From Magnetococcales bacterium (lineage in GTDB: Bacteria; Pseudomonadota; Magnetococcia; Magnetococcales; UBA8363), in NCBI GenBank assembly GCA_015660855.1, contig JACSDG010000107.1, forward strand, positions 1-23,808: DNA of 23,808 nucleotides, written 5' to 3'. The notes under the pieces are model-generated. The model was not told the DNA's origin. It saw nothing but the letters and a program-made list of their open reading frames with translations, and ran no database searches. Within the stretch, counting starts at the first letter, position 1. Every line of letters begins with the position of its first letter. Made by a program: the position numbers and the translations under genes. Below are positions 1,715-21,110 of this stretch, one piece after another.

Positions 1715-2832
1715 ACAGGGACACCGAAATCGCGCCAGAATTGAAGTAACCGGTCAAACAGCCTGGCGGGGGTAAAATGGTTCTCCCAGACACGGCGTGC
1801 CACCCGCCCTGTTTCCGGAACAGTATGGGGGTGTTGACAACAATGGATCATGGCCCGTGCCAGATCCCAGGTATCGGCACGACGGACGACCCAGCCCCCT
1901 CCCAGTTGTTCCAATACTTCACGGCTGGATCCCACATCGGTGGCAATCACCGGCCTGCCACGCGACATCAGTTCCAGCATGACCAAACCAAAACCTTCAA
2001 AAATGGAAGATAACAGCCCCACATCGATGGATTCCACCAGATCATCCATTTCCTGCCGCTGGTAGCCGCCGTGGAAAGACACACGAGCTGCCAGTCCCAG
2101 GCTGTCCACGAGTTCCCGGGCGGAACAGGCTTCGGGTCCATCGCCAAAAAAGTGCAGCTCGGCGTCATGTCCCGCCTCGATCACCTGCGCAAAGGCCCCG
2201 ATAACGAAGGGGATTCCTTTCATGGAATAAAGCCTGCCAAATTGCCCGAAACGCAGCGTGCCCTGTTGGCGTGCGGGCAGGGGCATCCGAAGCGGGGGTG
2301 CCGATGCGGGCCAAAGAGGTCGCACCGGACAGGAGAGACGATAATGGTCGGCAGCCCCAAGGGACTGACGGCGACCATGTACCGACAGACCGGAGATTCG
2401 AGCGCAAACCTGAAACCAGAGGGGGTGGTAATGAGGGGTGCGGGCTGAAGCCTCGCCCGGATCATGCACAAAAAAAGGGGGGGCATCGACAGGCATGATC
2501 GCCAGGGCGGCACAGGTCATTTGGGCGTTGTCGGGAGACCAGACGAGGGTGGGACGATGACGGCGCACAAACCACCACAGACGCCAGGCCAGCCAATAAT
2601 GGGGTGCCAGCCGACCGGTCAAAAACCAAAAGCCGGGTTGATGCACCCGTACACCGGCGTGGTCCAAAAATGTCCGCCATGCCGAGCGGCCAGGGTGATA
2701 ACACGCACTGAACAAATCCACCCGCCAACCACGCCGAACCGCCTCTTCCATCACCAGAGCAGCCAGAGTTTCCGTGCCGTGGGGAAAGTCCATCTCGTTG
2801 ATGACCATGACCATGGCGTATCGATTTTGCAT
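1711..2832 (-). CDS. Glycosyltransferase family 4 (GT-B, retaining type)
   Basis: 373-aa ORF. The C-terminal block 'EGFGLVMLELMSRGRPVIATDVGSSREVL' is the canonical GT4/GT1 E-x7-E region. The N-terminus 'MVMVINEMDFPHGTETLAALVMEEAVRRGWRV' matches the GT4 N-domain. A GGGAGA SD lies 8 nt upstream of the ATG at 2832. Confidence 0.8.
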   Translation of the reverse strand: MQNRYAMVMVINEMDFPHGTETLAALVMEEAVRRGWRVDLFSACYHPGRSAWRTFLDHAGVRVHQPGFWFLTGRLAPHYWLAWRLWWFVRRHRPTLVWSPDNAQMTCAALAIMPVDAPPFFVHDPGEASARTPHYHPLWFQVCARISGLSVHGRRQSLGAADHYRLSCPVRPLWPASAPPLRMPLPARQQGTLRFGQFGRLYSMKGIPFVIGAFAQVIEAGHDAELHFFGDGPEACSARELVDSLGLAARVSFHGGYQRQEMDDLVESIDVGLLSSIFEGFGLVMLELMSRGRPVIATDVGSSREVLEQLGGGWVVRRADTWDLARAMIHCCQHPHTVPETGRVARRVWENHFTPARLFDRLLQFWRDFGVPV

Positions 2833-2882
2833 GGCCGTTTTCTCCCACCTGTCAGTTTCAAGAGTCGGAAATCAATCCATTT

Positions 2883-4004
2883 TCAAGCAAACATCTCCGC
2901 CAATTTTTCTCCACGCTTTTCCCATGTGTGGAATTTCGACTCCCCAAAGCGCGCCGCACGCAAACCATCATCAAATTGCCGCGCTGCCAATGATACAAGG
3001 GTTTCCGTCAGTTGTACCGGGGTTCGGCACATAGTGACCCAAGGTTCAAACTCTTCGAGTTGGCGGCAACCAGGGGTCGCCAGAATGGGCTGGCCGAACG
3101 GCAGTTGACAAAACAACCGTACCGGACTGGATGCGGGGTTAATCCCTTCATTTTTGAAGGGAATCAACGCAACATCGAAAGATGCGGCAAAATCAAACAG
3201 TCTTTCATAGGGAATGTACCCTGTAAAACAGCAGCGCGGATGCGATTGAAGATAAATAAAATCGACCTGATCTTCGGGATGAATGTTTTCGACAGGCCCA
3301 ACAAAAACCCAATGGAGCCAAGGCAAAGTTTCCACCGCCTGACGCAACCAGGCAATATGCAACCGACTGGAAAAAGTTCCCAGAACCCCCGCCAAAGGCC
3401 TGAAGGTGGAAGGTACAGGTTGTGGAGAGGGTAGAGGAATGGAAGAAAACTGTTGGGGAATGGCGGCTTCCGGTACCCCATTGGGGACAATGAGAATGCG
3501 ATCCCGGGGCATGTGGTACAACATTTCAAACCGTTCCGCCAATGCTTTTGACACCACAATGACCCGTTGCACTTTTGTAACGATACGGCTTTCCCAGGTT
3601 CGGACATGATCGCTGGACCAACCATAGGCGGTGGAAAAATCATCGCTGGCGTAATAGATCGCCCAAGGGCAACGCAACCCGGACAAAATGCCCCATTGAT
3701 TGGGAAAGGTAAGGACAACCGCTCCGGGATTGGGACAAACCCGGCGGATGGCCAATCCGGTCAGCGGCGACATCCAGTGGGAGAACCGACCCAAGGCGTG
3801 GGATGGAAGAAAAATTTTGTGTTGTGACCAGCCGACCTGTGGCACCGCCTTGGGGTTAGCCAACCAGTGCCAAGCATGCAACTCTGGACCCAGTCCCATG
3901 GTTGGCATCCGTGCTCCCAAAGCTTTAAAGGGTTCACGAATCCAAACGTTTTTCGTATCCAGGACAAGAATCGGTCCAATCATGGGGGGCTTCAGTCGGA
4001 ACAT
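2883..4004 (-). CDS. Glycosyltransferase (GT-B fold, GT4-like)
   Basis: 373-aa ORF. The N-terminus 'MIGPILVLDT' and the C-terminal block 'DVALIPFKNEGINPASSPVRLFCQLPFGQPILATP' fit a GT-B nucleotide-sugar-binding domain. An AAGGG SD precedes the ATG at 4004. It is the first gene of the operon, directly downstream (same strand) of tRNA-Lys. Confidence 0.65.
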   Translation of the reverse strand: MFRLKPPMIGPILVLDTKNVWIREPFKALGARMPTMGLGPELHAWHWLANPKAVPQVGWSQHKIFLPSHALGRFSHWMSPLTGLAIRRVCPNPGAVVLTFPNQWGILSGLRCPWAIYYASDDFSTAYGWSSDHVRTWESRIVTKVQRVIVVSKALAERFEMLYHMPRDRILIVPNGVPEAAIPQQFSSIPLPSPQPVPSTFRPLAGVLGTFSSRLHIAWLRQAVETLPWLHWVFVGPVENIHPEDQVDFIYLQSHPRCCFTGYIPYERLFDFAASFDVALIPFKNEGINPASSPVRLFCQLPFGQPILATPGCRQLEEFEPWVTMCRTPVQLTETLVSLAARQFDDGLRAARFGESKFHTWEKRGEKLAEMFA

Positions 4005-4094
4005 GCCGCCCTTCGGGCAAAAACCAAAACCTTGGCGGGCTGCCGCCTCCGAAACGTGAACGTCTGGCGGGTGGGGTTAAACCCCTGTTTTTAT

Positions 4095-4170
<76 letters not shown>

Positions 4171-4239
4171 AAAAAAACCGGCAGACAATCCCGCCCGGAG
4201 CACCACGTCTCGAAACAACATCCCCGAAGATCCGGCGGC

Positions 4240-4269
4240 ATTATGTGGGGTTGATAGCTTTAAAGTCAA
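4240..4269 (-). promoter_or_regulatory. Candidate sigma70-type promoter for tRNA-Lys / downstream glycan operon
   Basis: On the minus strand TTGACT (plus 4264-4269) is followed by an 18-nt spacer and CATAAT (plus 4240-4245). The predicted TSS is ~60 nt upstream of the tRNA 5' end. This is a sequence match only. Confidence 0.3.
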
Positions 4270-4537
4270 GCATTGTCGTTTAAGCCTGATACGTTCGTGG
4301 GTTGCCCCAGAGGTCCATAATGGCATCTTCTTAGTTGGGCAAGAATTGGCCACGACAAGTTCTACAACTGGTGCGACCGCTACGGCCAGAGCCATTGCCA
4401 CAACGGTTCTACTCTAAAGGAATTCTTTGGTTGGAAGAGCGAGAAAAAGCCGCGATAATAACAATTTATCACGAATATCGAAAAGACGGCTATCGGAAAT
4501 GGCCTTTTGTCGGATTTCCGCTAAACCAGCACAAGAG

Positions 4538-4589
4538 AAAAAAAAAGCCAGGGGCCGATAGAGGGGGGAGAGGGTAACCGGCCCCTGGC
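4538..4589 (-). terminator. Rho-independent terminator (minus strand)
   Basis: A perfect 11-bp GC-rich stem (GCCAGGGGCCG 4547-4557 and CGGCCCCTGGC 4579-4589) encloses a 21-nt loop. On the minus strand it is followed immediately by a T9 run (plus A9 at 4538-4546). Confidence 0.6.
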
Positions 4590-4640
4590 CATAGGCGTGA
4601 ATAAACACAACCTATGTCAAACAGCTCACGAAGGAGCTAA

Positions 4641-4678
4641 GCCAGGGACGGATGAAGGGGGGTACGCCCGTCCCTGGC
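4641..4678. repeat. GC-rich palindromic element, second copy of the hairpin at 4547-4589
   Basis: An 11-bp perfect stem (GCCAGGGACGG 4641-4651 and CCGTCCCTGGC 4668-4678) with a 16-nt loop. Both copies carry a GGGGGG in the loop. The two copies share the arm consensus GCCAGGGRCSG, so this may be a REP-like element or part of a structured sRNA. Confidence 0.45.
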
Positions 4679-4835
4679 AAGGACGGAGACTTTCATCTCA
4701 CATCCTCACGTCAACCGGGAAGCCCACACCGGTTAAGTCAAAAACAAATCCCGCACACTGTGTCCAGCACTACCATCCTGCCTGAGCAACCTTCTATTAA
4801 CGTATTATCAAGATTCGGACCATATTTTAATATCA

Positions 4836-4848
4836 TTAAATATCAATA
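4836..4848. repeat. 13-nt exact direct repeat TTAAATATCAATA (copy 1) in an AT-rich tract
   Basis: An exact copy recurs at 4958-4970, 122 bp away. Its function is unknown. It may be a protein-binding site or chance in AT-rich DNA. Confidence 0.35.
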
Positions 4849-4957
4849 CGATACAATACAGAATCGTCGGAAATCCCTTGCCTGTGTTATTTTTTTTTCC
4901 AGATTGCCCGCGAATTAAAGAAAAAAATGGGGACAAAATGTTCATAACATTTTGATT

Positions 4958-4970
4958 TTAAATATCAATA
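4958..4970. repeat. 13-nt exact direct repeat TTAAATATCAATA (copy 2)
   Basis: Identical to 4836-4848. It lies adjacent to the palindrome ATGTTcatAACAT (4938-4950). Confidence 0.35.
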
Positions 4971-5041
4971 AAAGAAAATGTAATTTTTTTTCCGAAAGGA
5001 TCAACATGTGCAAAATTCGACACTAGGTTGAAATTTGCCCC

Positions 5042-8000
5042 TTAAAGGATTTTAGTCGGCGCAACCCCAGACTTTTTTCCCCCAAGAAAATCGAGCATCC
5101 GTTCCAAATGTTGCAGGCGCAACAGAGGATCTTCCCAGTACCGCTCACGAAAAGTAAGCAGATTTTTCTCCTGGTTAAACACCACCGAACCTCCACCCTG
5201 GCGAATCATGTCGATCAAAACGGCAGGCTGAATGTTGGGCTGGGAATGAAAGGTCAGGACGGCCCCTTTGGGACCCGCTTCCAGTTTGAGTACCTTGAGT
5301 TTGATACACCTTCGCTTGATGGCCACCACCTTCAATAAATTTTCCACCGAATCGGGCAGAGAGCCAAAACGATCGGTAAACTCCACCTTCATCTCCGCTG
5401 TTTCATCAGGCGTTTTTAATTCGGCCACCCGTTTGTACATGGTCAATCGTAAATTCATGTCGGTGATGTAAGTGTCGGGAATGTTGGTGGAAAGATTCAG
5501 ATTGATGATGGGGACAATTTCTTCCTCCTGGGGGCTGCCACCCCGATCGGCCATCGTCCCCGCACCATAAGCCTCCACCGCTTCCTTCAACATTTGGTTG
5601 TACAGTTCAAAACCTATTTCCTTGATGTGTCCCGATTGTTCTTCCCCCAACACGTTGCCTACGCCACGAATTTCCATGTCGTGGCTGGCAAGCATGAAAC
5701 CCGATCCCAACTCCCCCAAAGCTTCGATGGCCTCCAGACGTTTACGAGCATCGGCGGATTGGGCCTGAATGGGGGGGGTGAGCAGATAGGCATAAGCCCG
5801 GTGTCGCGAACGCCCCACCCGTCCGCGCAACTGGTGCAATTGGGCCAGACCAAAATGATCGGCCCGATGGATGATGATGGTATTGGCACTGGGAATGTCA
5901 ACCCCGTTCTCAATGATGGTGGTACACAGCAACAAGTTGAATTCCTGGCGATAAAAGGCCACCATGATCCGTTCAAGGCGACCAACGGGCATTTGACCGT
6001 GGGCGATGCCGATTTTGGCTTCGGGGACCAGTTCTGCGATGCGGATGGCCATGCGTTCAATTTCCTGGACCTTGTTGAACACATAAAACACCTGACCACC
6101 ACGATAAATTTCCCTGAGAATCGCCTCACGGATACGGGCGGAATTGTATTCAGTGACAAAGGTACGGATTGCCAGGCGATTGGTTGGGGGGGTGGCAATG
6201 ATGGATATGTCGCGAATGCCCGACATGGCCATATGCAAGGTGCGGGGAATGGGGGTTGCGGTCAAGGTCAGAATATCAACGTTGGCGCGCATGGCTTTAA
6301 TGCGTTCCTTGTGGCTGACACCAAAACGTTGCTCTTCATCAACTATGAGCAACCCCAAATCTTTGAAAGCGATGTCCTTTTGCAGCAGGCGATGGGTGCC
6401 GATGACAATATCCGCCTTGCCCTCACCAATTTTTTCCGCAAGTTCATCCATTTGTTTTGCGGTGCGAAACCGAGACATCATGGCGACGTTGACGGGATAG
6501 GGGGAAAACCGTCGGGAAAAAGTTTCGTAGTGTTGTTGCGCCAGAATGGTCGTGGGGGTAAGAACGGCCACCTGCTTGCCATCCATGACGCAACGAAACG
6601 CCGCACGCAAAGCCACCTCGGTCTTGCCAAACCCGACATCGCCGCAAATCAACCGGTCCATGGGACGCAACGAGGCCATGTCCGACAATACCGCTTCGAT
6701 GGCCTGGGCCTGATCGGGAGTTTCATCGTAGGGAAACGCAGTGGCAAATTCATGGTCCACGGCATGGGGACTGGAAAACCGGATTCCTTTGGCGGTTTCA
6801 CGCTTGGCTTGCACTTCGACCAGTTCCGCCGCCATTTCCAATAATTTTTTCTGGACCTTTTGGCGGGTTTTTTTCCATTTAGTCCCCCCCAGTTTGTCCA
6901 GAATCACTTCGTCAGACCCGGCGTATTTGCTGACCCGGTCCAGGTTTTCCACCGGCACGTAGAGTTTATCCGACCCGGCGTAGGTCAAAAGGAGAAAATC
7001 GTTTTGAATCCCCCCCACCGCCAAAGTATGCAATCCCCCGAAACAACCAATGCCATGGTCGGCATGAACGACAAAACTGCCCTCCTTCAAATTGCGAAAG
7101 GTGGCCAGGATACGGTCCAGGTATTGGGGATCGGTATGTTTGCGACGTGCCCTGGTTCCCAAAACGGCGTCTTCGTTGAAGACCGCCAGTCGCAGACCCG
7201 CATGGACAAAACCACTGGCCAAGTCCCCCAAAACCAATTGTATACGCTTGGAAGAAACCAACAGGGCATCCTGCCAACTTGCGGCACTTTCAGTCTTATG
7301 ACCATGATCGGCCAGCAATTCGGCCACCCGATCCCGTTGCCCCATGGAACGGGTGGAAATCACAATGCGGTGCTGCTGTTTTTGTTGCGTCTGAATAAAG
7401 TTGACAACCCGTTCCACCACGGAATGTCCCGACAGAACATCCTCGCCGGCAGGATCAAAAAAATCGGGAACGCGGTCAAATCCCAGAGAACAACCAGGTT
7501 CATCGGGATTGTCCTTGATTTGCAGTACCTGAAAATGCGCCAAAGATGCAAAAAGTTGCTGTGCCGTGATATAGAATCGGTGGACCGGCAACAGGCGCAG
7601 ATGGGACGCATCTTCTTCCTTGAGCAACAATTCCCTTTGGTTATTCACTTTTTCCTCGAAAGCGACCCCAGCCGGTTCCACATCGGCATCGAGAAGAATT
7701 TGGCTGCCTTCGGGAAGATAATCGACCAAAAGGTCGGTGGTGTCGTAGAACAGCGGCAAAAACCGCTCCATCCCCTGAAATTTTCCCCCGGTGGAAACCA
7801 CCTTGTAAATTTCATCGCTGGCCGCCTTGCCGCCAAAGGTTTCCCGGTAGAAAGTGCGAAAACAACGGATGGTCTCCTCGGTCAAAAGAACCTCGCTCAT
7901 GGGCAAGGTCTCAACCTTGGAATTTCTTTGGGTGGAACGTTGGGTTTGGATGTCAAAATGGCGGATGGTTTCCACCTGGTCGCCAAAAAGTTCCACCCGC

Positions 8001-8623
8001 ACCGGTTCTTCATAGCCGGGAGGAAACAGATCGATGATGCCACCACGCGCGGCGAATTCACCCGGTTCTTCAATCTGGGCGGAGGATCGGTAGCCGGAGG
8101 CGATTAAAAATTGTTTGAAGGCGGGAAGATCAATCTGATCCGATTCCCGGATGGCAAATCCATGTTGCGCCAAGAGATGCCGGGGCATGAGTCTTTGCAT
8201 CAGGGCCATGGGGGTCGTAATGATGATGGCTTGTTGGTATCCCGCATTATTTTCGGGGCGAACCACGCCAAATCCAAGCATTTGGGTCAGACGATACAGG
8301 GTGGCAATGCGTTCACCGACGATGGGACCATAGGGTGACAAAGGTTCAAACGGCAATATTTCCCACGCCGGAAAAGGGAGAATGGCGACGGGACGGTGTC
8401 GATCCCCCTGAAACAACAACAACTCTCGATAGATAGCCTCGGCCCGTGTGGTTTTTCCGGTGACGATGACCAGGGGGCTTGTGCGGGTCGCCGCCCACTC
8501 TTTGACAAACAAACTCAGCGTCGCCCCCGGCAAATCTTTCAGCACACCGAAAGGGTGACCAGGTGTTTTGGGCAGGGGAGCCAACAGTTTGGAAAACAGG
8601 GAAGCGAACGGGCTTGGATCCAT
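5042..8623 (-). CDS. mfd: Transcription-repair coupling factor Mfd
   Basis: 1193-aa ORF. It has an SF2 helicase core with Walker A 'GDVGFGKTEVALRAAF' and motif II 'LLIVDEEQRFGVSHKE'. The UvrB-homology N-terminus, RNA-polymerase-interacting region, TRG motif region and C-terminal D7 domain follow in the expected order. The length is typical for Mfd. Confidence 0.95.
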   Translation of the reverse strand: MDPSPFASLFSKLLAPLPKTPGHPFGVLKDLPGATLSLFVKEWAATRTSPLVIVTGKTTRAEAIYRELLLFQGDRHRPVAILPFPAWEILPFEPLSPYGPIVGERIATLYRLTQMLGFGVVRPENNAGYQQAIIITTPMALMQRLMPRHLLAQHGFAIRESDQIDLPAFKQFLIASGYRSSAQIEEPGEFAARGGIIDLFPPGYEEPVRVELFGDQVETIRHFDIQTQRSTQRNSKVETLPMSEVLLTEETIRCFRTFYRETFGGKAASDEIYKVVSTGGKFQGMERFLPLFYDTTDLLVDYLPEGSQILLDADVEPAGVAFEEKVNNQRELLLKEEDASHLRLLPVHRFYITAQQLFASLAHFQVLQIKDNPDEPGCSLGFDRVPDFFDPAGEDVLSGHSVVERVVNFIQTQQKQQHRIVISTRSMGQRDRVAELLADHGHKTESAASWQDALLVSSKRIQLVLGDLASGFVHAGLRLAVFNEDAVLGTRARRKHTDPQYLDRILATFRNLKEGSFVVHADHGIGCFGGLHTLAVGGIQNDFLLLTYAGSDKLYVPVENLDRVSKYAGSDEVILDKLGGTKWKKTRQKVQKKLLEMAAELVEVQAKRETAKGIRFSSPHAVDHEFATAFPYDETPDQAQAIEAVLSDMASLRPMDRLICGDVGFGKTEVALRAAFRCVMDGKQVAVLTPTTILAQQHYETFSRRFSPYPVNVAMMSRFRTAKQMDELAEKIGEGKADIVIGTHRLLQKDIAFKDLGLLIVDEEQRFGVSHKERIKAMRANVDILTLTATPIPRTLHMAMSGIRDISIIATPPTNRLAIRTFVTEYNSARIREAILREIYRGGQVFYVFNKVQEIERMAIRIAELVPEAKIGIAHGQMPVGRLERIMVAFYRQEFNLLLCTTIIENGVDIPSANTIIIHRADHFGLAQLHQLRGRVGRSRHRAYAYLLTPPIQAQSADARKRLEAIEALGELGSGFMLASHDMEIRGVGNVLGEEQSGHIKEIGFELYNQMLKEAVEAYGAGTMADRGGSPQEEEIVPIINLNLSTNIPDTYITDMNLRLTMYKRVAELKTPDETAEMKVEFTDRFGSLPDSVENLLKVVAIKRRCIKLKVLKLEAGPKGAVLTFHSQPNIQPAVLIDMIRQGGGSVVFNQEKNLLTFRERYWEDPLLRLQHLERMLDFLGGKKSGVAPTKIL

Positions 8624-8877
8624 AAGGCGTCAGTAACAACCACCATCGGCTTGCAGGACAGATCGATGGGGCATGGGTTAAGGTGGATTTGAGTGGGGAT
8701 GGTCGGACTGTTTAGGGCCCCTGGTCAAGGAATCATGATCAAATGACCCGCAATTATCGCCGCACCATTGGAAAAACCCTACCGGCTGACCCTGTCGGTT
8801 TGGGTTGACATGGGCGAAAAAACGTTTCAAAACTCAGCCAGATATTCAAGCTGAACAACCAACTGGAGGTCCATTCC

Positions 8878-9138
8878 ATGTCGCAAACTCAATGGTCCCT
8901 GCAAGATGCCAAAAATCGCTTCAGCCGTGTCGTTAAAGCCGCGCAGCAAGGTTACCCACAGACGGTTACCAAGCGTGGCATCCCTGCTGTCGTCGTTATC
9001 GCCACCGAAGAATACGAACGCCTGCAATGTCTCGAAAAAAGGCATCTTCCTTCGTTTATCGACCACCTCCTGGCGATACCGAAGGATGATGAGAGTTTTG
9101 AAAGCTCGATCATTCAACCTCGAAATTTAATTTTGTGA
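8878..9138 (+). CDS. Type II toxin-antitoxin system Phd/YefM-family antitoxin, apparently orphan
   Basis: 86-aa protein 'MSQTQWSLQDAKNRFSRVVKAAQQGYPQTVTKRGIPAVVVIATEEYERLQ' matches the Phd/YefM (VapB-type) antitoxin N-domain pattern (W-LQ-AK--FS-vv--A--G-PQ-vT--G-PaVVV----EYERL). A GGAGG SD lies 8 nt upstream (8865-8869). A possible -35 TTGACA is at 8805-8810. No PIN or ParE/RelE toxin ORF follows. Confidence 0.75.
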   Translation: MSQTQWSLQDAKNRFSRVVKAAQQGYPQTVTKRGIPAVVVIATEEYERLQCLEKRHLPSFIDHLLAIPKDDESFESSIIQPRNLIL

Positions 9139-10259
9139 GCCAGCGGATCCATCGCCAGATCATCGTTGTCGGCGGGGGACCGGGTGGATCCATGACGGCA
9201 TGGAAGCTGGCTTTGGCCGGATGTGAAGTCCTGCTCATCGAAGCCAAAACGTTTCCCCGCTCCAAACCCTGTGCCGGCTGGATCACCTGTGCTGCCATGC
9301 AGGCCATGGCGTTTGACGCAACCACCTATCCCCATCTTTTGGTTCCCATCACCCGTGTCGCCATTGGTCTTCACGATGGTTTGCACGTCACCCACTGGCC
9401 CAACCCGGTGAGCTACGGCATTTTGCGGCGGGAGCTGGATGATTTTCTCCTGCAACGGGCCAGGGCGGCGGGGGCGGAAATCTGGCTGGGACGGCGGGTG
9501 GATCGGGTTGAACTCGGACAGGATGATGCCCTCGTCGTTGTGGGCGCAACCCAGGTCCGTGGAAAATGGGTTGTGGGTGCCGGTGGTGCAAGCTGCCCGG
9601 TCGCACGCGCCGTGGGGGGGAAATCATTTTGGCAACACCGCACCATGGTCGCATCACAAACGAGCGAAACCCCCATAGGTATCCGCCAACTGGAAAATTC
9701 CGGGCTGGGGACCGGTCTGCCGGTGCTGTTTCCCGAACCGGAAGCAGATGGATATGCCTGGTATTTTACCAAGGGGGATCATCTAAACATTGGGGTGGGG
9801 GCGTTGGGTGGCGGACCTGCCATTCCCATGCGCCGGCAACGTTTCCTGGAACGTCTGCAACGCGCAGGCACCCTGGACCCCTCCTGGAAGCTGGCCCCGT
9901 TCATCGGCCATTCTTATGCCCTCTGGCGCGGATTGCGGCAACCGTTGGCGGGTCGCAACCATCTATTGGTGGGCGATGCCGCCGGCCTGGCACGGGATTT
10001 CAGTGGTGAAGGAATTGGACCCGCCGTCCGCAGTGGTTCCCTGGCGGCCAATTTTATCCTTTCCCAACCATCGGGCGATAGCGAAGCCAACGACCATACC
10101 CGACAATTGGCACGCCTCCAGGGCCATGGTTTGATCACAAAAATGGGGGGAATCCTGGAAAAACTGCCCCAATCCTTCCGCCGCACCCTGGTTGAAAGTC
10201 TGTGCCGATCCCCCTGGTTGCGGCGACGGTGGGTGTTGGAAAAAGCGTTCCTGGGGTAG
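9135..10259 (+). CDS. FAD-dependent oxidoreductase, geranylgeranyl reductase family
   Basis: 374-aa ORF. It has an N-terminal dinucleotide-binding fold 'IIVVGGGPGGSMTAW' and the 'KPCAGWI' motif. The geranylgeranyl-reductase-family signature 'HLLVGDAAGLARDFSGEGIGPAVRSGSLAA' is present. The GTG start at 9135 overlaps the antitoxin stop (GTGA). No earlier in-frame start can include the Rossmann motif. Confidence 0.75.
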   Translation: MSQRIHRQIIVVGGGPGGSMTAWKLALAGCEVLLIEAKTFPRSKPCAGWITCAAMQAMAFDATTYPHLLVPITRVAIGLHDGLHVTHWPNPVSYGILRRELDDFLLQRARAAGAEIWLGRRVDRVELGQDDALVVVGATQVRGKWVVGAGGASCPVARAVGGKSFWQHRTMVASQTSETPIGIRQLENSGLGTGLPVLFPEPEADGYAWYFTKGDHLNIGVGALGGGPAIPMRRQRFLERLQRAGTLDPSWKLAPFIGHSYALWRGLRQPLAGRNHLLVGDAAGLARDFSGEGIGPAVRSGSLAANFILSQPSGDSEANDHTRQLARLQGHGLITKMGGILEKLPQSFRRTLVESLCRSPWLRRRWVLEKAFLG

Positions 10260-10264
10260 GTCGG

Positions 10265-11419
10265 TCAGGCAAGATTTTCCAGGGCACTTTGGGTACGCCG
10301 AATCTGATGGAGCATTATTTTTTCACACCCGTCCCAACTTGTCTGCTCCCCCAGGCTAAAGCGTAGCCATTCGTTACGGCGCAACGAAAAATTGATGCCA
10401 CCATTGCCAAACATGCCGTGCATATGGGGATACCGTTGCAACCAGGCATGCACCCCCGGTCCCACATCGATGGCGCGACCCACGGGATAGGCCAAAAAAT
10501 GGATCAATGGAATTTTTTGTTGTTCCCAATAGTGGCTATTGTCTTCGATGGCCATGGCCACTTGGTCAGGGGTTTGATGCGAGAGGAGACGATGGGCGCG
10601 GGTATGGTTGCCGATTTCCCAGCCTGCGCGATGCAACCGCTCCACCCCATCCCGATCCAAGTGTACGTTAAGGTGGTTGGGATCTCCCAAGCATTCCCGG
10701 TAGGTTGCGTCGGTCACCTCCTCCATCACATCGGCGGCGTAATGGCCTTTCATCAGGCTTTGGAGTGCCGCCCCATCATCAGGCCAATCCTGTCCAGGCA
10801 ATTGCGCACGCAGGTTCGCCGCCAACCGCGCCGCGTATCCTTTAAGCACCAACACCCCCGCCAGAACTCGATACAAACTTTGGCGTTTCCGGGCAAACTC
10901 GGAACAGACAAAAACAGTCGGATGCAACCCCAATTGTTGAATAATGGGACCCGCCTGGGTCAGATTGTTGGTGAATCCATCATCAAAGGTCACCGCGAAA
11001 ACAGATTTCTCAAGACTCCCGTTGGCCCACAAACCTGGCAGTTCACTCAAGGCAACGGCGGGCATATGGGACAGCATAAATTTCAGTTGTTCTTGCAACT
11101 GTAAAATGGTCGTCTCCCCTTTGCGATAACCCTGTTCCCACAATTCACGCTGGTTGGGATCGACGACGCTGTGATAGAGCAGAATATAAACTCCCTTGGG
11201 AATTTTTTTTCTCACCCGTTTGACAAATATCCCAGGAAGGCACTTTCCGAGGCTTCGGGTAAGGAAAGATTGCGGCGGGGCGGGGGGAACCGGGGTTTTT
11301 TCAATGGTTTTTTGCAGATTCGGCCAATGCTCGTTCGGTGGGACGGTAGGGTGATTCATGGGGGAGGCCGGTTTTTTTTGGTCAGAGTAGACAAAATCCA
11401 GGGGATACGCCGCAACCAT
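10265..11419 (-). CDS. Polysaccharide deacetylase (NodB homology domain, carbohydrate esterase family 4)
   Basis: NodB motifs are present: 'TFDDGFTNN' (catalytic Asp and metal ligand) and 'GWEIGNHTRAH' (His ligands). The ORF-track start is 11419. An alternative ATG at 11359 (MNHPTV...) would overlap the upstream GT stop as ATGA. Neither start has a clear SD. Confidence 0.8.
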   Translation of the reverse strand: MVAAYPLDFVYSDQKKPASPMNHPTVPPNEHWPNLQKTIEKTPVPPAPPQSFLTRSLGKCLPGIFVKRVRKKIPKGVYILLYHSVVDPNQRELWEQGYRKGETTILQLQEQLKFMLSHMPAVALSELPGLWANGSLEKSVFAVTFDDGFTNNLTQAGPIIQQLGLHPTVFVCSEFARKRQSLYRVLAGVLVLKGYAARLAANLRAQLPGQDWPDDGAALQSLMKGHYAADVMEEVTDATYRECLGDPNHLNVHLDRDGVERLHRAGWEIGNHTRAHRLLSHQTPDQVAMAIEDNSHYWEQQKIPLIHFLAYPVGRAIDVGPGVHAWLQRYPHMHGMFGNGGINFSLRRNEWLRFSLGEQTSWDGCEKIMLHQIRRTQSALENLA

Positions 11420-12408
11420 CGACGCTGGGCCAAAATCCGGGGTCTCTGGGCCAGCAACTGTTGAAAAAGGTCATGGTAGTTCTGGCACATGCGTTGGGCG
11501 GTATGCGGAAAACCGACCATGCGTGCGGCCCACTGCGGGAAAGTCTGGAGCATTTCTTCCAGTTTGGCCTCCAAGGTTTCGGGGGTATATTCAATCCCAT
11601 AACCATTGCAGTATTCGACCATGGAGCCGCTGTCAAGGTAGAGCAATGGCAAACCGCACAACCCCGCCTCCAGGTTGTGGTTCCCCCCCGATTCGTGCCT
11701 GGCGGCGGTAATATAGGCATCGTGTCGGCGCAACTCCTGGGCGAGGGCCTCCCCCGAGAGCGGTTCGATAAGGCGCGCCCGTTCAAAATGAAAATCCTTA
11801 GGCACGCGACCAATATAGGTAAATTCAATCCGCTCTGCCCATTGGGGATCGGCGAGCAATCGATCCAATTGTTGGTAAACGTCAAAGCCTTTGTTCCAAT
11901 GGTTGCTCCAATGATGGGTCACCAGTTTTAATAGTTTTTCCTGTTTTTTTTGGGGGGGTTCTCCAGGTTGCCAAAGGTGATGATCGCCGCCGTTGAGGAT
12001 GACACTCCAGGGACGCAAACGATTAAAACCGGATTCCAGGTAACGATCTTTGACCCATTGACTGACGAAGACGGTGTGGTCGGCGATTTGGTTGGCGTGA
12101 ATGCGATAATGATTGAATGTTTTGGCAAGGTCGTCACGGGCTTCGCTGGTGTTGTTGATGCGGTGGACAACGATGGCGTTGGGATTTTTCAGCAGGAGAT
12201 AGAGGAGGATATCACGATGGTCATAGGCGGAGATACGCAACCGGGCATCGGGTTCGGCCAACAGAATGATATCCAAATCCCGGTCTTCCAGGTCATGGCT
12301 CACCCGTTCCCCCTGGTCTCCCAGGTATTGCGTCAAAGCCTTGCCAAACTGATTTCCCCCACCCCAAGCCCCCGATTGGAGGCTCATGCCGATGCTTATT
12401 TTTGTCAA
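11356..12408 (-). CDS. Glycosyltransferase, GT-B fold (GT4-like)
   Basis: 350-aa ORF. The N-terminus 'ISIGMSLQSGAWGGGNQFGKALTQYL' resembles the GT4 N-domain. The C-terminal block 'ESGGNHNLEAGLCGLPLLYLDSG' resembles the GT-B E-x7-E/donor-binding region. The TTG start at 12408 is preceded by a GAGGA SD and overlaps the upstream stop as TTGA. A C7A8 tract (plus 11944-11958) encodes PPQKK. Confidence 0.65.
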   Translation of the reverse strand: MTKISIGMSLQSGAWGGGNQFGKALTQYLGDQGERVSHDLEDRDLDIILLAEPDARLRISAYDHRDILLYLLLKNPNAIVVHRINNTSEARDDLAKTFNHYRIHANQIADHTVFVSQWVKDRYLESGFNRLRPWSVILNGGDHHLWQPGEPPQKKQEKLLKLVTHHWSNHWNKGFDVYQQLDRLLADPQWAERIEFTYIGRVPKDFHFERARLIEPLSGEALAQELRRHDAYITAARHESGGNHNLEAGLCGLPLLYLDSGSMVEYCNGYGIEYTPETLEAKLEEMLQTFPQWAARMVGFPHTAQRMCQNYHDLFQQLLAQRPRILAQRRWLRRIPWILSTLTKKNRPPP

Positions 12409-13361
12409 TGTTTTTCCTCACTGTTGCATGCGGCGTTGAGATTCCGCCTGATCTCATCGGAAGTGCTTTGAGAATCCAGTTCATCGACAATTTCATAAAT
12501 TCTTTCCCAATAGGGGGGCAATTCTCCCAACACCCGATCCCGTTGCAAAGGTTTATCGGAAATAGCCAAGTGCAGCGTATAGGGAAGGGTAAACATGGGA
12601 GGAAACAGTTCCTTCCTGGGCACCCCCTCCCGGGAATCGTCATCCAAAGGCAAGCAATAACTCTTAACCACATCCACCCCCCGTTGCAACGCCTCCCTGG
12701 TCTCTGGTTGATCATGAAAATGCGAGGGAACGGGGGAAAAAATAATCATTGCCTTGGAGGAATACAAACCTAGCCGTATGTTCTCATCACGGAGACTTTT
12801 CAATGTTTCATCAAGACCGGCAATGTTTTGGTGATTCAGGCCGGAGACCAGAACGATCCGGTCTGCCATATATCCCATGGTTAAATCCACCAAATCCAGA
12901 TAACCGGGACAACAATCGATGAGCACATAATCAACTCCACGATCAGCCCCTTCCGGCTTGAACGCCGCCAAATCTTCAATAAATTTTTGCGCATAAAAAC
13001 GCAACGCCCATTCTTCCAGGCTTTCGTTTGCACGTCCTTCCTTGGGGGGAACTTTGTGGGTTCTCGATTCACTGAATTTTTGAATCTGAAACTGGTTGGT
13101 TTTACCTGCCGGCAATACAAGAAAACGCCCGTTGGATCCCCATATTCCTTTGGGATCATCGGACTTCCTGTCGCGTAAAAGTTTGCTCGGGGGGTAAAAA
13201 TTAAAAGTGCCTTTTTCAAGATCCCGACTAGAATAGAATTCGGCAAGCAAATCACCGACGCCCAATTCATTCAATTTTTCATCGGGATGTTTACGCAGGT
13301 TGGGGGAATAGCTGATGCCGGGGGCATGGATATCCATATCCACCAAGTGCCGTGCGCCCAA
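12405..13361 (-). CDS. ParA/MinD-fold P-loop NTPase-like protein with degenerate Walker A (putative pseudo-ATPase)
   Basis: A strong Walker B / ParA signature 'RGVDYVLIDCCPGYLDLVDLTMGYMADRIVLVS' is present, and the 'FLVLPAG' segment corresponds to the ParA switch region. The position where the deviant Walker A 'KGGVGKT' should sit (residues ~8-20) reads 'DMDIHAPGISYSPNL', with no lysines and no GK[ST]. No Walker A is found in other frames upstream. The start is uncertain: the TTG at 13361 lies only 2 nt after a GGGAGGAG SD. Confidence 0.5.
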   Translation of the reverse strand: MGARHLVDMDIHAPGISYSPNLRKHPDEKLNELGVGDLLAEFYSSRDLEKGTFNFYPPSKLLRDRKSDDPKGIWGSNGRFLVLPAGKTNQFQIQKFSESRTHKVPPKEGRANESLEEWALRFYAQKFIEDLAAFKPEGADRGVDYVLIDCCPGYLDLVDLTMGYMADRIVLVSGLNHQNIAGLDETLKSLRDENIRLGLYSSKAMIIFSPVPSHFHDQPETREALQRGVDVVKSYCLPLDDDSREGVPRKELFPPMFTLPYTLHLAISDKPLQRDRVLGELPPYWERIYEIVDELDSQSTSDEIRRNLNAACNSEEKH

Positions 13362-13415
13362 CTCCTCCCTTGAATGAATAGAAGGTGTAAACTTTCATAT
13401 AATGACCTATTGCCT

Positions 13416-14105
13416 TCATGCCGCGCTTTTAAAGTCAACCACAACCACATTTGGGAACGGACTTTTAAACACATCCTGAATTCCCCCCATTTCTTTTGAA
13501 GAAGAATTCTGTCCCGCTGCCGCCGCAGCAATGCGTTTCTCTCTACCAGCATCGGGAAAATAATCGAGTGCCCGTGGCCCGAAGGTTAAATATTTTTCAC
13601 GTCCCACTTTGTGCCGGGAGATCAGTTCCCAATCTTCCAACTGATTCAAAATGCGCGTCAGATTGGCCGGCTTCAGGGCCAACTTTTCACCCAGATCTTT
13701 TTGTAAAACATATTTTGCCTCACCGATCTGTTCCATGATCTTGCACACATGCTCCCGGTTGAGGATTTCCTCCGGAATTTCCATGTGCCGCGCCACCACT
13801 CTGTCGTGCAGAACATTCTGAAATGCCAACCAACGGGTAGCATAGGCTTCGCTCATGCCGTTGAGTATTTTTTTCCGGGAAGCGTCCGCAGCCACACTTT
13901 CCAGGTGCAGAGACAATGTTTCCATCTCTTTAACATGGGCATGATCCCACAGGGCAATATACAGCTTCCAACGGTAGGCAAAATCCAATTTCTGGGCAAT
14001 CGATTCATCCCATCGCTCAATTTTCTTAACAGCATCTAAAATGCCGTCAAGATCGGATATTTCCGAAAGCCAAAGCGGGTCTATCGTGTCAAGGTCAATC
14101 GCCAT
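13416..14105 (-). CDS. Hypothetical protein with central winged-helix (MarR-like) DNA-binding motif
   Basis: 229-aa ORF. The segment 'YVLQKDLGEKLALKPANLTRILNQLEDWELISRHKVGREKYLTF' has the helix-turn-helix plus wing pattern of MarR/PadR-type wHTH. The flanking domains have no motif I recognise. It sits directly upstream of the ParA-like gene in the same frame, but the two are separated by several stop codons. Confidence 0.45.
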   Translation of the reverse strand: MAIDLDTIDPLWLSEISDLDGILDAVKKIERWDESIAQKLDFAYRWKLYIALWDHAHVKEMETLSLHLESVAADASRKKILNGMSEAYATRWLAFQNVLHDRVVARHMEIPEEILNREHVCKIMEQIGEAKYVLQKDLGEKLALKPANLTRILNQLEDWELISRHKVGREKYLTFGPRALDYFPDAGREKRIAAAAAGQNSSSKEMGGIQDVFKSPFPNVVVVDFKSAA

Positions 14106-19317: not shown

Positions 19318-19752
19318 ATGAGAAGACCCAAGCGCACATTCAACCCAAAAAGAGAGGTTCGTCCTGTACCGGGTACAGACACCGAGCGGGAAAATCTTGT
19401 GAGTTTGGCATCCAAGGTTGTCTATGGTGGTAATCCCGAGCACAAACGCAACCCCGGTGACTTTGGCTTAACTCCTCCGAGTAGTCCAAGACAGGGAAAG
19501 ACTTTGTGTGATTCGGTCGGTATTTTTACTCAGCGAGAGTCTACCAAGTTGCTTCGGGAAGGGGTGCGACGCGGGGTAATCAGTCGCCGTGAAAAAAATG
19601 GATGGCCTCAAAATGTATGGGCTGTTGACGCCAACGGTATGCCCATGGAAGCTCAATTGGAAAACGCTGAACGGGGGATTTATCATGGTTACCCAATGCC
19701 AGAAACCGATATTTTCCGAGAAAAGATTCTAGAACGCTGGGGGCAACATTGA
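19318..19752 (+). CDS. Hypothetical small basic protein (144 aa), first gene of an uncharacterised two-gene cassette
   Basis: The N-terminus 'MRRPKRTFNPKREVRP' is strongly basic. It is followed by 'KVVYGGNPEHKRNPGDFG' and the C-terminal 'ERGIYHGYPMPETD'. I recognise no family. The RBS is weak. The stop overlaps the downstream start (TTGA). Confidence 0.45.
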   Translation: MRRPKRTFNPKREVRPVPGTDTERENLVSLASKVVYGGNPEHKRNPGDFGLTPPSSPRQGKTLCDSVGIFTQRESTKLLREGVRRGVISRREKNGWPQNVWAVDANGMPMEAQLENAERGIYHGYPMPETDIFREKILERWGQH

Positions 19753-21110
19753 GTGAACTCTTCGTCATCACTCCCCTGAAGTGGACACCCGCTGTCTACG
19801 GACCGGAAGAGGTACGGCAAACGTCAGCAATATTACAGTTCACCGTCAATAACCGTCTGGTAACCAGGGTCGATAACGATTGGACAAGAGTAGTCGATAA
19901 AACAGTATGTCTTTCTGCATACCCTCTAGCTCTTTGGCTTGTTTCTTCTTGGTGGCGTTTGCATTGGGAACCGGTACCAGCTGGGATACCCAATATTGAA
20001 TGGCGTATAGCCCACGAAATGGGGAGCGCAGGCCATGGGTTTCTCTGGCCACCTGTGCGGTTCGAGTCTGATGGGGAGATGGTCACAGTCCATTGTACGC
20101 CATCCTCGGCTGAGTCCAATGAACCCATTCGTTACCTGAATCGGCTGCACGAGTCAATACCATCCGCTGAATTTACCAAAGGGATTGTGGATTTTATCCA
20201 AATTGTCATCGACAGGCTGGATTCCGTTGGTATTCAGGATACGGAGTTGCACACACTGTGGCGAGAAGTGGGCGGCGAACGGACAAACCCAAAGACAGCT
20301 TCTTACCGCAAAATGGAGGCCCTGCTCGGGTTTGACCCCGACGAAGGGCCGGAAACGATTGTTGATACACTCCTGAATTTGTCTATGGCGGTTGGGGATG
20401 CGGCAGTAGCAGAGATTGCTGCCAGTACGTCTTCCCCCCTGCACTTGAATCAGGTGTTGGAGAGTGCCAGATCTGCGGGTCTCCAAGGAAACCTCTCTGG
20501 TATTTATGCCCTGATGCCGCAAGCAACCTGGTGTCATTACACAACGGCAACCCCCTGGGACCGGGGCCGAGACTTGGCCCGAACAGTACGTCAACACTTG
20601 AGCTTATATTCTGCGCCCGTCTCCAACCGCCTCCTGAGTGACATTTTAGGGCTAGAGGAACGGGGTCTGGCCGATGGTGATGCGCCTATGGCCGGGACTG
20701 ATTTAAGCTTGGCAATCAAATCGGAAGAGGGGGATCAGGTCAATCTGCTTTTTCGCCGTAAGCGTCCAAACGGGCGACGTTTCGAGGTAGCCCGCTGGAT
20801 GGCTGATGTTCTGCTATCCTCAGCCCAAGACCGTTGGCTACCCGCCACTAACGCAAAAACGGCCCGACAAAAAGTTCAGCGCGCATTTGCCGCTGAGTTC
20901 CTGTCCCCAATTGATGCCCTGAAAACTTACCTGGACAACGATCTGGCCGACGAAGATCGCATTGAGGAGGCTGGAGGTTATTTTGGGGTTTCCCCGTTAA
21001 CCGTCCGGAGCCAATTGGTCAACCATGGTTTGGTTCCGTGGAACGTCATAGGCAACGGTTCTACTCCAAGGGATTCTTGGTTGGAAGAGTGGGAAAAGGT
21101 AAAAGCCTGA
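19749..21110 (+). CDS. Hypothetical protein with C-terminal ImmA/IrrE (M78 peptidase, COG2856)-like domain lacking the HEXXH zinc site
   Basis: 453-aa ORF. The first ~340 aa are unrecognised. The last ~110 aa 'RRFEVARWMADVLLSS-(20)-QKVQRAFAAEFLSPIDALKTYL...GGYFGVSPLTVRSQLVNHGLV' align in spacing and residues with the ImmA/IrrE core 'RFTLAHELGHLLLH-(~25)-EANxFAAELLMP...FGVS.....RL..LGLI'. HELGH is replaced by RWMAD and the downstream Glu ligand is absent. The TTG start is uncertain. Confidence 0.55.
   Translation: MSELFVITPLKWTPAVYGPEEVRQTSAILQFTVNNRLVTRVDNDWTRVVDKTVCLSAYPLALWLVSSWWRLHWEPVPAGIPNIEWRIAHEMGSAGHGFLWPPVRFESDGEMVTVHCTPSSAESNEPIRYLNRLHESIPSAEFTKGIVDFIQIVIDRLDSVGIQDTELHTLWREVGGERTNPKTASYRKMEALLGFDPDEGPETIVDTLLNLSMAVGDAAVAEIAASTSSPLHLNQVLESARSAGLQGNLSGIYALMPQATWCHYTTATPWDRGRDLARTVRQHLSLYSAPVSNRLLSDILGLEERGLADGDAPMAGTDLSLAIKSEEGDQVNLLFRRKRPNGRRFEVARWMADVLLSSAQDRWLPATNAKTARQKVQRAFAAEFLSPIDALKTYLDNDLADEDRIEEAGGYFGVSPLTVRSQLVNHGLVPWNVIGNGSTPRDSWLEEWEKVKA

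Follow-up and report, generated by a model that had tools for sequence, protein, structure and literature searches.

What occupies the 871 nucleotides (nt) that separate mfd from the tRNA-Lys gene in this Magnetococcales genome? The window, by which we mean the whole stretch of DNA analysed here, is a 23.8-kb contig of the NCBI entry 'MAG: Magnetococcales bacterium' (MAG, metagenome-assembled genome), and it consists of ordinary chromosomal DNA with polysaccharide-synthesis genes. A first-pass annotation had noted about 870 nt without a credible open reading frame (ORF) between these two genes and had suggested that a structured segment at 4538-4680 is either a small RNA (sRNA) transcribed from the minus strand or a pair of repetitive extragenic palindromic (REP) elements. 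The gap indeed measures 871 nt, and no ORF within it has a Pfam match or a conserved frame. We propose, with a probability of roughly 60%, that positions 5022-4538 on the minus strand constitute the self-contained gene of a lineage-restricted small regulatory RNA, which is transcribed independently and whose C-rich loops act in trans on G-rich sites. For annotation, this means that the apparently 'empty' gap between mfd and tRNA-Lys would contain a gene.

The palindromes reported for this segment are present in the sequence. The first large hairpin is formed by GCCAGGGGCCG/CGGCCCCTGGC (4547-4557/4579-4589) and the second by GCCAGGGACGG/CCGTCCCTGGC (4641-4651/4668-4678), and the loops of both carry G6 on the plus strand, equivalent to C6 on the minus strand. 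The two smaller stem-loops, CATAGG...CCTATG at 4590-4616 and AGCTC...GAGCT at 4623-4638, were also found as described, while the distance between the large hairpins is 51 nt (4590-4640) and not 47 nt. An A9 run at 4538-4546 reads as T9 on the minus strand, immediately after the hairpin that runs from 4589 to 4547. This arrangement, a GC-rich stem-loop (the 13-bp stem of hairpin H4) directly followed by U9, is that of a predicted rho-independent terminator. A simple terminator scanner overlooked H4, whose loop of 17–21 nt lies beyond the scanner limit of 8.

The potential to fold exceeds what base composition would provide. The minimum free energy (MFE) of 4520-4700 on the minus strand is -77.4 kcal/mol, compared to -51.2 ± 3.9 kcal/mol for 200 dinucleotide shuffles, none of which was as low (z = -6.8); the same test on the plus strand gave z = -5.2. 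Alignment of the two large hairpins shows that they are related: 30 of 38 positions match, a level that none of 1000 shuffles reached. The 11-mer arm motif alone is not significant in the window (4 matches versus 2.9 expected). What is distinctive is the arrangement of the hairpins and, above all, its conservation in other genomes.

Homologues were sought first with a generic hairpin pattern, GCCAGGG..GGGGGG..CCCTGGC, scanned over 185,579 species genomes. At least 119 loci matched, nearly all by chance in unrelated taxa, and the true loci among the matches listed were confined to two Magnetococcales MAGs, with one locus each. When the intergenic region was compared with the retrieved loci by BLAST, a segment of ~150 nt aligned at 88% identity in two Magnetococcales MAGs. 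Further carriers were found by fetching the contigs of close OadB homologues, which added GCA_015228815.1 (locus L121) and Magnetococcus sp. THC-1_WYH (L123) to DCbin4 (L036) and nWRX3bin6 (L075). The assemblies of these four carriers are GCA_002753735.1, JADGCQ01 of nWRX3bin6, GCA_015228815.1, and GCA_039908385.1. Altogether, copies of 4538-4712 (~175 nt) with 85–88% identity occur once per locus in four other Magnetococcales MAGs. When the five sequences are aligned, conservation sets in sharply ~30 nt 5' of hairpin H1 and stops with the U-tract, beyond which the flanks cannot be aligned. A covariance model built for the element (R1) detected exactly one copy at each carrier locus, with scores of 161–203 bits, and none elsewhere in ~165 kb of Magnetococcales DNA. 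Between the same genomes, DNA identity is 85–88% for the RNA and 74–78% for the mfd coding sequence; this higher conservation argues that the RNA element is under purifying selection.

The element does not correspond to any described family. The Rfam covariance search that had been suggested for it returned no family at the gathering thresholds of Rfam 15, the only match in the window being tRNA-Lys. At E ≤ 10, the best match over 4539-4677 was SorY (17.9 bits versus a gathering score of 111; E = 0.66), and no family recurred at the four homologous loci. A metagenome scan with the strict pattern gave no matches, and a loops-only pattern gave 85, mostly from two samples, none of which was confirmed by the covariance model. 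Viral contigs gave no matches either, and a phage or mobile origin finds no support in these zero viral matches. A literature search for regulatory RNAs or sRNAs of Magnetococcales produced nothing relevant. As far as accessible data show, the RNA family appears to be confined to this small clade, and the carriers are best explained as a genus-level clade of freshwater Magnetococcales. The locus appears to hold a conserved structured RNA gene that is absent from Rfam and found in one lineage only.

The pattern of substitutions supports an RNA structure. RNAalifold recovered five helices (B, H1, H2, H3, and H4) with 53 pairs, of which 10 have changed on both sides with pairing kept. With this structure fixed, 93.9% of cells are paired, compared to 37–47% when the 3' partners are slid by 1–3 columns, and none of 500 column shuffles reached the observed number of double changes or the observed covariation score. 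Helix B is the most telling: 5 of its 11 pairs covary even though its sequence is poorly conserved. H1 shows compensatory changes at three stem pairs, and its loop, GCGUACCCCCCUUCAUC, is invariant in all five genomes. H2 is kept in every genome with one-sided changes only (89% of cells paired), while H3 is 100% paired, with nine of ten pairs invariant and a single U-A/U-G change; the single-stranded UUGA that precedes H3 is invariant. In H4, all 13 pairs are formed in the five genomes, with two compensatory changes from C-G to U-A in nWRX3bin6 and THC-1. The core of the H4 loop, (G)UUMCCCUCUCCCCCC(C)UCUAYC, is conserved except for one C/A position (A in the window, C in the others), a difference of one base in the length of the C-run (the window has one C fewer), and the stem-closing end, which reads UAUC or UACC and has one extra U in GCA_015228815.1.

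The same alignment bears on strand and on coding potential. G-U pairs, 3–7 per sequence, occur in the minus-strand reading only, and the U-tract after H4 exists on the minus strand only; together, these two features support transcription of the RNA from the minus strand. A conserved small protein, which the first-pass annotation had named as one outcome that would overturn its proposal, is scarcely credible. Minus-strand ORFs do start inside H3 in three genomes with a common N-terminal stretch (window 4414-4608, 64 amino acids; nWRX3bin6 5503-5916; DCbin4 3466-4290). However, the shared stretch stops exactly at the terminator, together with nucleotide conservation, and the ORFs have lengths of 64, 137, and 274 amino acids. 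They run antisense into oadB, indels of 1 nt shift their frame, the substitutions in the stems are compensatory rather than synonymous, and none has a Pfam match.

The conserved unit is larger than first described. The segment 4538-4680 is indeed structured, but the RNA reaches further in the 5' direction, and this segment accounts for no more than its 3' two-thirds. Positions 4706-4680 form a fifth conserved hairpin and, in four of the five genomes, 4736-4711 form a sixth; conserved blocks of the promoter region extend to 5022. The sixth, an accessory 5' hairpin built on an AACCGG/CCGGTT-type inverted repeat, is found in the window, nWRX3bin6, GCA_015228815.1, and THC-1, is absent from DCbin4, and belongs to the MFE fold of 4530-4800.

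We re-aligned 350 nt of upstream sequence from the five genomes to look for a regulatory region. All five contain a -24/-12 motif of family consensus TGGYNY-N5-TTGATA, in which the GG and the TTGATA are invariant at fixed canonical spacing while the bases between and around them vary. The sigma-54 consensus is TGGCAC-N5-TTGCW, with GG at -24 and GC at -12, 10 nt apart (Barrios 1999, cited in PMC4253122). The sigma-54 geometry is present, and GCA_015228815.1 has a perfect TGGCAC, but all five genomes have A instead of C in the -12 element (TTGATA). Three matches to TGGYNY-N5-TTGATA occur elsewhere in the ~165 kb, at ORF starts in L122 and L126, and we read them as coding coincidences. A canonical sigma-54 promoter, TGGCAC-N5-CTGCT, precedes nifH in a close relative (L130 6330-6345; GCA_002753595.1), which indicates that the clade uses sigma-54. 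In that genome, mfd is followed by draT and nifHDK (L130 5391-9824).

Three further blocks are conserved upstream of the motif, at about -80, -175, and -200. These positions lie within the range of 80–200 nt used by sigma-54 activators, and the blocks are candidate sites for an enhancer-binding protein. The farthest, of consensus TGTCSAAWTTTGCAC, has no mismatches in the five genomes at a matching relative position (-200/-203 in the window, nWRX3bin6, and THC-1) and does not occur elsewhere in the ~165 kb of Magnetococcales loci. The first A-rich palindrome reads TGGAAAAAATCTTTCCA in DCbin4 and GCA_015228815.1; it is clear in all four relatives and degenerate in the window. Other readings of this region were considered and set aside. 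No conserved -10/-35 pair exists in the upstream regions of the five genomes; with TTGATA taken as a -35 element, no genome has a conserved -10 at 16–18 nt, and the sigma-70 promoter called by a scanner at 4846-4819 (TTGATA-16-TATGGT) is not conserved in GCA_015228815.1 or DCbin4. A NifA-type TGT-N10-ACA reading of the far upstream block fits only three of the five genomes, and we claim no specific activator. Overall, the region is conserved and, judging by motif and geometry, may be of sigma-54 type. If the -24/-12 reading holds, transcription is predicted to start near 4796 in the window, yielding an RNA of ~260 nt, and 2–3 nt before helix B in DCbin4, yielding an RNA of ~170 nt; the leader between the promoter-like motif and helix B varies between genomes. 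The features of the locus are collected in the table.

Table. Features of the sRNA locus and its flanking genes, in window coordinates. Helix numbers refer to the five-genome consensus structure.
Feature	Positions	Strand	Remarks
mfd	5042-8623	-	Gene call
Upstream block TGTCGAATTTTGCAC (consensus TGTCSAAWTTTGCAC)	5008-5022	-	Possible binding site of an activator (enhancer-binding protein); ~200 nt 5' of the promoter-like motif
First A-rich palindrome-like block CGGAAAAAAAATTACAT	4978-4994	-	Candidate regulator or bending site; aligned in 5/5 upstream regions
Second A-rich palindrome-like block CTGGAAAAAAAAATAACAC (CTGGAAAAAAATTTTCCAG in DCbin4)	4884-4902	-	~80 nt upstream of the -24/-12 motif, 5/5 genomes
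Promoter-like -24/-12 motif TGGTCCGAATCTTGATA	4806-4822	-	Family consensus TGGYNY-N5-TTGATA; TGGCAC in GCA_015228815.1
Accessory 5' hairpin UUAACCGG...CCGGUUGA	4711-4736	-	Inside the variable-length leader (4796-4713)
Hairpin B AGGAUGUGAGA-UGAAAG-UCUCCGUCCU	4680-4706	-	Helix 1; 5'-most hairpin kept in all homologues
Hairpin H1, stem GCCAGGGACGG/CCGUCCCUGGC, loop GCGUACCCCCCUUCAUC	4641-4678	-	First C-rich candidate seed module
Small spacer hairpin H2, AGCUC-CUUCGU-GAGCU	4623-4638	-	Helix 3
Spacer hairpin H3 CAUAGGUUGUG...CACGCCUAUG	4590-4616	-	Helix 4; preceded by invariant single-stranded UUGA
Hairpin H4 with intrinsic terminator, stem GCCAGGGGCCGGU/AUCGGCCCCUGGC, loop UACCCUCUCCCCCCUCU, U9 (4546-4538)	4538-4589	-	Helix 5; second C-rich candidate seed module
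tRNA-Lys(CTT)	4095-4170	-	Sole Rfam 15 match of the window above gathering threshold

The genes around the element differ between carriers. In the window, the RNA lies downstream of mfd in the same orientation, with tRNA-Lys on its downstream side. In the four other genomes, it is convergent with the 3' end of oadB, the beta-subunit gene of a Na+-translocating decarboxylase operon (oadB/mmdB type, PF03977), 180–220 nt behind that gene. The gene upstream of the RNA is mfd in the window, a gene for a major facilitator superfamily transporter in DCbin4, a pilin-like gene in nWRX3bin6 and THC-1, and ahcY in GCA_015228815.1. This variety of neighbours excludes a general role as a 3' untranslated region (3'UTR) or a 5' leader. 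Nor does the RNA keep a fixed place upstream of a co-oriented gene, as a cis-regulatory leader or riboswitch does, since its downstream neighbour is tRNA-Lys here and convergent oadB in the four others. At all carrier loci, it is accompanied by ~300 nt of upstream DNA with the conserved blocks.

These comparisons make it very unlikely that the segment is simply a long 3'UTR and terminator of mfd without a function of its own. The element and mfd share an orientation, the stretch from the mfd stop (5042) to 4823 is free of terminator-like sites, and the first strong terminator beyond that gene is H4 with U9. Yet the covariance model found no copy at the mfd loci of four relatives (L128, L129, L130, and L216), two of which (L128 in DCbin4 and L129 in GCA_015228815.1) belong to the same MAGs as carrier loci L036 and L121. 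In DCbin4 and GCA_015228815.1, where both loci were examined, the RNA is at oadB, as it is at L075 and L123, and ~300 nt of upstream sequence travels with it. The view that a distance of ~450 nt from the mfd stop is too great for a mere mfd terminator was therefore borne out, as the RNA of the relatives is not beside mfd. Because the mfd loci of the four relatives lack the RNA, the unit is likely to have been relocated in the window genome, and in this lineage the mfd/tRNA-Lys gap appears to have replaced oadB as its site.

The predominance of the oadB site raises the question of an ancestral cis or antisense role, in which the RNA, convergent 180–220 nt behind oadB, would stop or sense read-through from the operon and the window copy would be a displaced relic. 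Four of the five genomes do keep the RNA tail-to-tail with oadB despite a different gene on its other side. However, no U-tract follows the hairpins when they are read in the direction of oadB, and the displaced copy in the window has lost none of the hairpins, loops, or upstream blocks, which speaks for a function that does not depend on oadB. In addition, four relatives with the decarboxylase operon (L122, L124, L125, and L126) have no copy of the RNA by the covariance model. We regard this role as highly improbable.

Relocation might instead be the mark of a dispersed palindromic repeat, that is, structured DNA of the REP type, the bacterial interspersed mosaic element (BIME) type, or the miniature inverted-repeat transposable element (MITE) type. 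The two related GC-rich imperfect palindromes are intergenic, the locus has moved between genomes, a tRNA gene is adjacent, and an unexplained 45-nt repeat lies nearby. Such repeats are defined by many dispersed copies, and here none was found beyond the one per locus in the window and ~165 kb of related loci, while the matches listed from the 185,579 genomes comprise one locus in each of two Magnetococcales genomes. Within the window, the arm motif is limited to the four arms described, repeat finding turned up no further copy of the element, neither terminal inverted repeats nor target-site duplications are present, the G-U pairs are kept on one strand, there are no viral matches, and the element's own upstream region travels along. 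The suggested pair of REP-type repeats is not supported, and we consider this origin extremely unlikely.

The alternative suggestion of the first-pass annotation, a small structured minus-strand RNA ending at T9, is supported by homologues with sharp boundaries, covarying stems, conserved loops, G-U polarity, and a conserved upstream region. Building on this, we suggest the following sequence of events. Transcription would start near 4796 from the sigma-54-like -24/-12 promoter at 4822-4806, served by enhancer-like sites 80–200 nt upstream, and would end at the H4 hairpin and U9 (4589-4538). The product, ~260 nt here and ~170 nt in the shortest homologue, would be a row of hairpins in which the paralogous H1 and H4 expose the C/U-rich loops ACCCCCCUUCAU and CCCUCUCCCCCC(C)UCU, with two small spacer hairpins between them. 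These loops would most likely base-pair in trans with G-rich, Shine-Dalgarno-like sites in mRNAs, their CUCC/CCUC and C6-7 runs pairing with GGAG or G-rich ribosome-binding sites, and translation would be blocked or modulated. The RNA has a U9 tail and exposed conserved loops, and the terminator hairpin with its U-tail may provide the usual handle for an Hfq-type chaperone. We infer expression, the start site, dependence on sigma-54 and an activator, Hfq binding, and targets from the sequence.

Several points weigh against this proposal. The alignment contains only four distinct sequences, all from close relatives, so that covariation support is modest, and the shuffle control ignores phylogeny. 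The -12 element is TTGAT rather than the near-invariant TTGC, whereas the nifH promoter of a relative is canonical; given this deviation, dependence of the promoter on sigma-54 has only roughly even odds. The distance from the promoter-like motif to H1 varies from 40 to 127 nt. Transcription that continues past mfd may be a further source of the RNA in this genome, as positions 5041 to 4823 contain no obvious terminator of that gene. When 137 kb of related DNA, a sample far too small to weigh much, were searched for complements of the loops, the only match was the RNA's own antisense strand. Finally, it is just as conceivable that the C-rich loops bind a protein or act as an RNA sponge.

The last point leads to the main rival to pairing between loops and ribosome-binding sites, in which the RNA is real but serves as a decoy. 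Its poly-C/CU loops would sequester a protein that binds C-rich RNA (for example, a KH-domain protein or Rho) or would titrate G-rich RNA. Two paralogous stem-loops with near-identical conserved loops are a layout shared by titrating RNAs and multi-seed sRNAs, and the scan of 137 kb of related sequence yielded no mRNA target. On the other hand, the RNA has two modules only, where protein sponges usually carry many, and we know of no bacterial global regulator with poly-C specificity that is associated with such RNAs. Moreover, the loops hold CUCC/CCUC, complementary to the Shine-Dalgarno sequence, as in RsaE/RoxS (PMC6158497). We judge a decoy function unlikely. A bolder reading, quite doubtful in our view, takes the unit of ~485 nt (enhancer-like sites, non-canonical -24/-12 promoter, and modular RNA with poly-C loops) as a self-contained regulatory cassette that has moved between chromosomal sites in one piece, with an RNA that acts in an unusual way, such as sequestering a poly-C-binding protein or G-rich RNA under the control of an enhancer-binding protein.

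Comparison with known systems places the proposed trans-acting sRNA among bacterial modular sRNAs. Its closest architectural analogue is NrsZ of Pseudomonas, which is driven by an RpoN/NtrC promoter; three of its stem-loops are nearly identical, with two spacer stem-loops between them, and the loops of these three pair with the target (PMC4253122). Both are intergenic sRNAs of ~200–230 nt with similar stem-loops that share a loop motif, small spacer stem-loops, and a -24/-12 promoter with an upstream activator site, the last being a proposal in our case. They differ in that there is no sequence or covariance-model similarity and that our RNA has two modules instead of three and a -12 element of TTGAT instead of TTGC. 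The loop motif of NrsZ is ACAGGCAG, whereas the loops here are the poly-C/CU sequences ACCCCCCUUCAU and CCCUCUCCCCCCUCU. NrsZ is also encoded downstream of ntrC, and the neighbours here are mfd/tRNA-Lys or oadB. These differences, together with the absence of an Rfam match, place the RNA outside the NrsZ family.

In seed chemistry, the closest analogue is RsaE/RoxS, in which duplicated C-rich motifs pair with G-rich sites that contain the Shine-Dalgarno sequence (PMC6158497, PMC5419742). The likeness consists of duplicated C-rich motifs that are unpaired or in loops, and the same mechanism is proposed here. RsaE/RoxS come from Firmicutes, where they act without dependence on Hfq, whereas the RNA of Magnetococcales is longer and has another fold and another proposed promoter type. 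The duplicated C-rich unpaired motifs are all that is common to the two, and the Rfam searches gave no match to RsaE/RoxS.

Other familiar classes share individual features. Qrr, GlmY/GlmZ, and CrcZ (for CrcZ, see PMC4253122) resemble the proposed RNA in having a -24/-12 promoter with upstream sites for an enhancer-binding protein, several hairpins, and an intrinsic terminator. The RNA matches none of their Rfam models and has another seed composition. Qrr RNAs have a conserved 32-nt region, CrcZ has A-rich CA motifs, and GlmY/Z act as mimics. REP and BIME elements likewise are GC-rich imperfect palindromes that lie between genes and downstream of a gene, but the element described here is single-copy in all sequence examined, strand-specific, and linked to a promoter region, with loops constrained in sequence.

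The surroundings of the locus yielded several additional observations. A second public assembly of the same region (European Nucleotide Archive ERZ27245799; L001, 11,478 nt) is 99.56% identical to window positions 2340-13767 and ~50 nt longer; small indels separate the two assemblies, and the gap between mfd and the tRNA gene is 100% identical in both. A direct repeat of ~45 nt with ~90% identity, CAACGGTTCTACTCYAARGGA..TTGGTTGGAAGAG, is present at 4401-4447 and 21053-21097. The first copy falls in the non-coding DNA that separates the sRNA terminator from tRNA-Lys, and the second at the 3' end of an unannotated ORF of 453 amino acids, directly before an asparagine-synthase gene. The related loci have no copy of the repeat, and no similarity at the protein level exists outside it. 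The translation of 4335-4500 gave the impression of a transposase relic, which was rejected: there is no Pfam match, and all that this stretch has in common with the ORF at 19749-21110 is the 45-nt DNA repeat.

A sigma-70-like promoter (TTGACT-18-CATAAT, 10/12) is present on the minus strand at 4240-4269, ~70 nt upstream of tRNA-Lys. Between it and the 5' end of the tRNA gene is a terminator-like hairpin with a T-run (4180-4195, minus strand), which is odd for a tRNA leader. Divergent from mfd, an ORF of 86 amino acids at 8878-9138 on the plus strand resembles Phd/YefM-type antitoxins (PF02604 on the equivalent gene of L001); it has no obvious toxin partner, and its 3' end overlaps the start of an ORF for a flavin adenine dinucleotide (FAD)-dependent oxidoreductase.

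What lies downstream of mfd varies within this clade; in GCA_015228815.1 (L129 8774-10908), for example, genes for a DNA methylase and a NotI-like restriction endonuclease directly follow mfd. The decarboxylase gene set is duplicated in tandem in GCA_002753515.1 (L122 1861-9242) and GCA_015228975.1 (L126 3468-9108), both without the sRNA, with two OAD_beta genes ~4 kb apart. In THC-1_WYH, a gene of the phage-integrase family (L123 6842-7852) lies ~1.2 kb upstream of the sRNA gene.

Magnetococcales are deep-branching, mostly uncultured magnetotactic Pseudomonadota, and our literature search and Rfam 15 yielded no regulatory RNA of theirs. The locus described here offers a well-delimited candidate, with boundaries, a structure, seed loops, and a covariance model (R1). 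It overturns no concept; rather, it is a solid and fairly ordinary sRNA discovery, a previously undescribed RNA of a known kind, the bacterial modular sRNA. The conserved regulatory region should allow a motif search to find the activator and the regulon. If the -24/-12 reading is correct, the RNA would be another sigma-54-controlled modular sRNA outside the Gammaproteobacteria, and if the reading as a mobile cassette were true, it would connect a sigma-54 signal with physiological traits peculiar to magnetotactic cocci.

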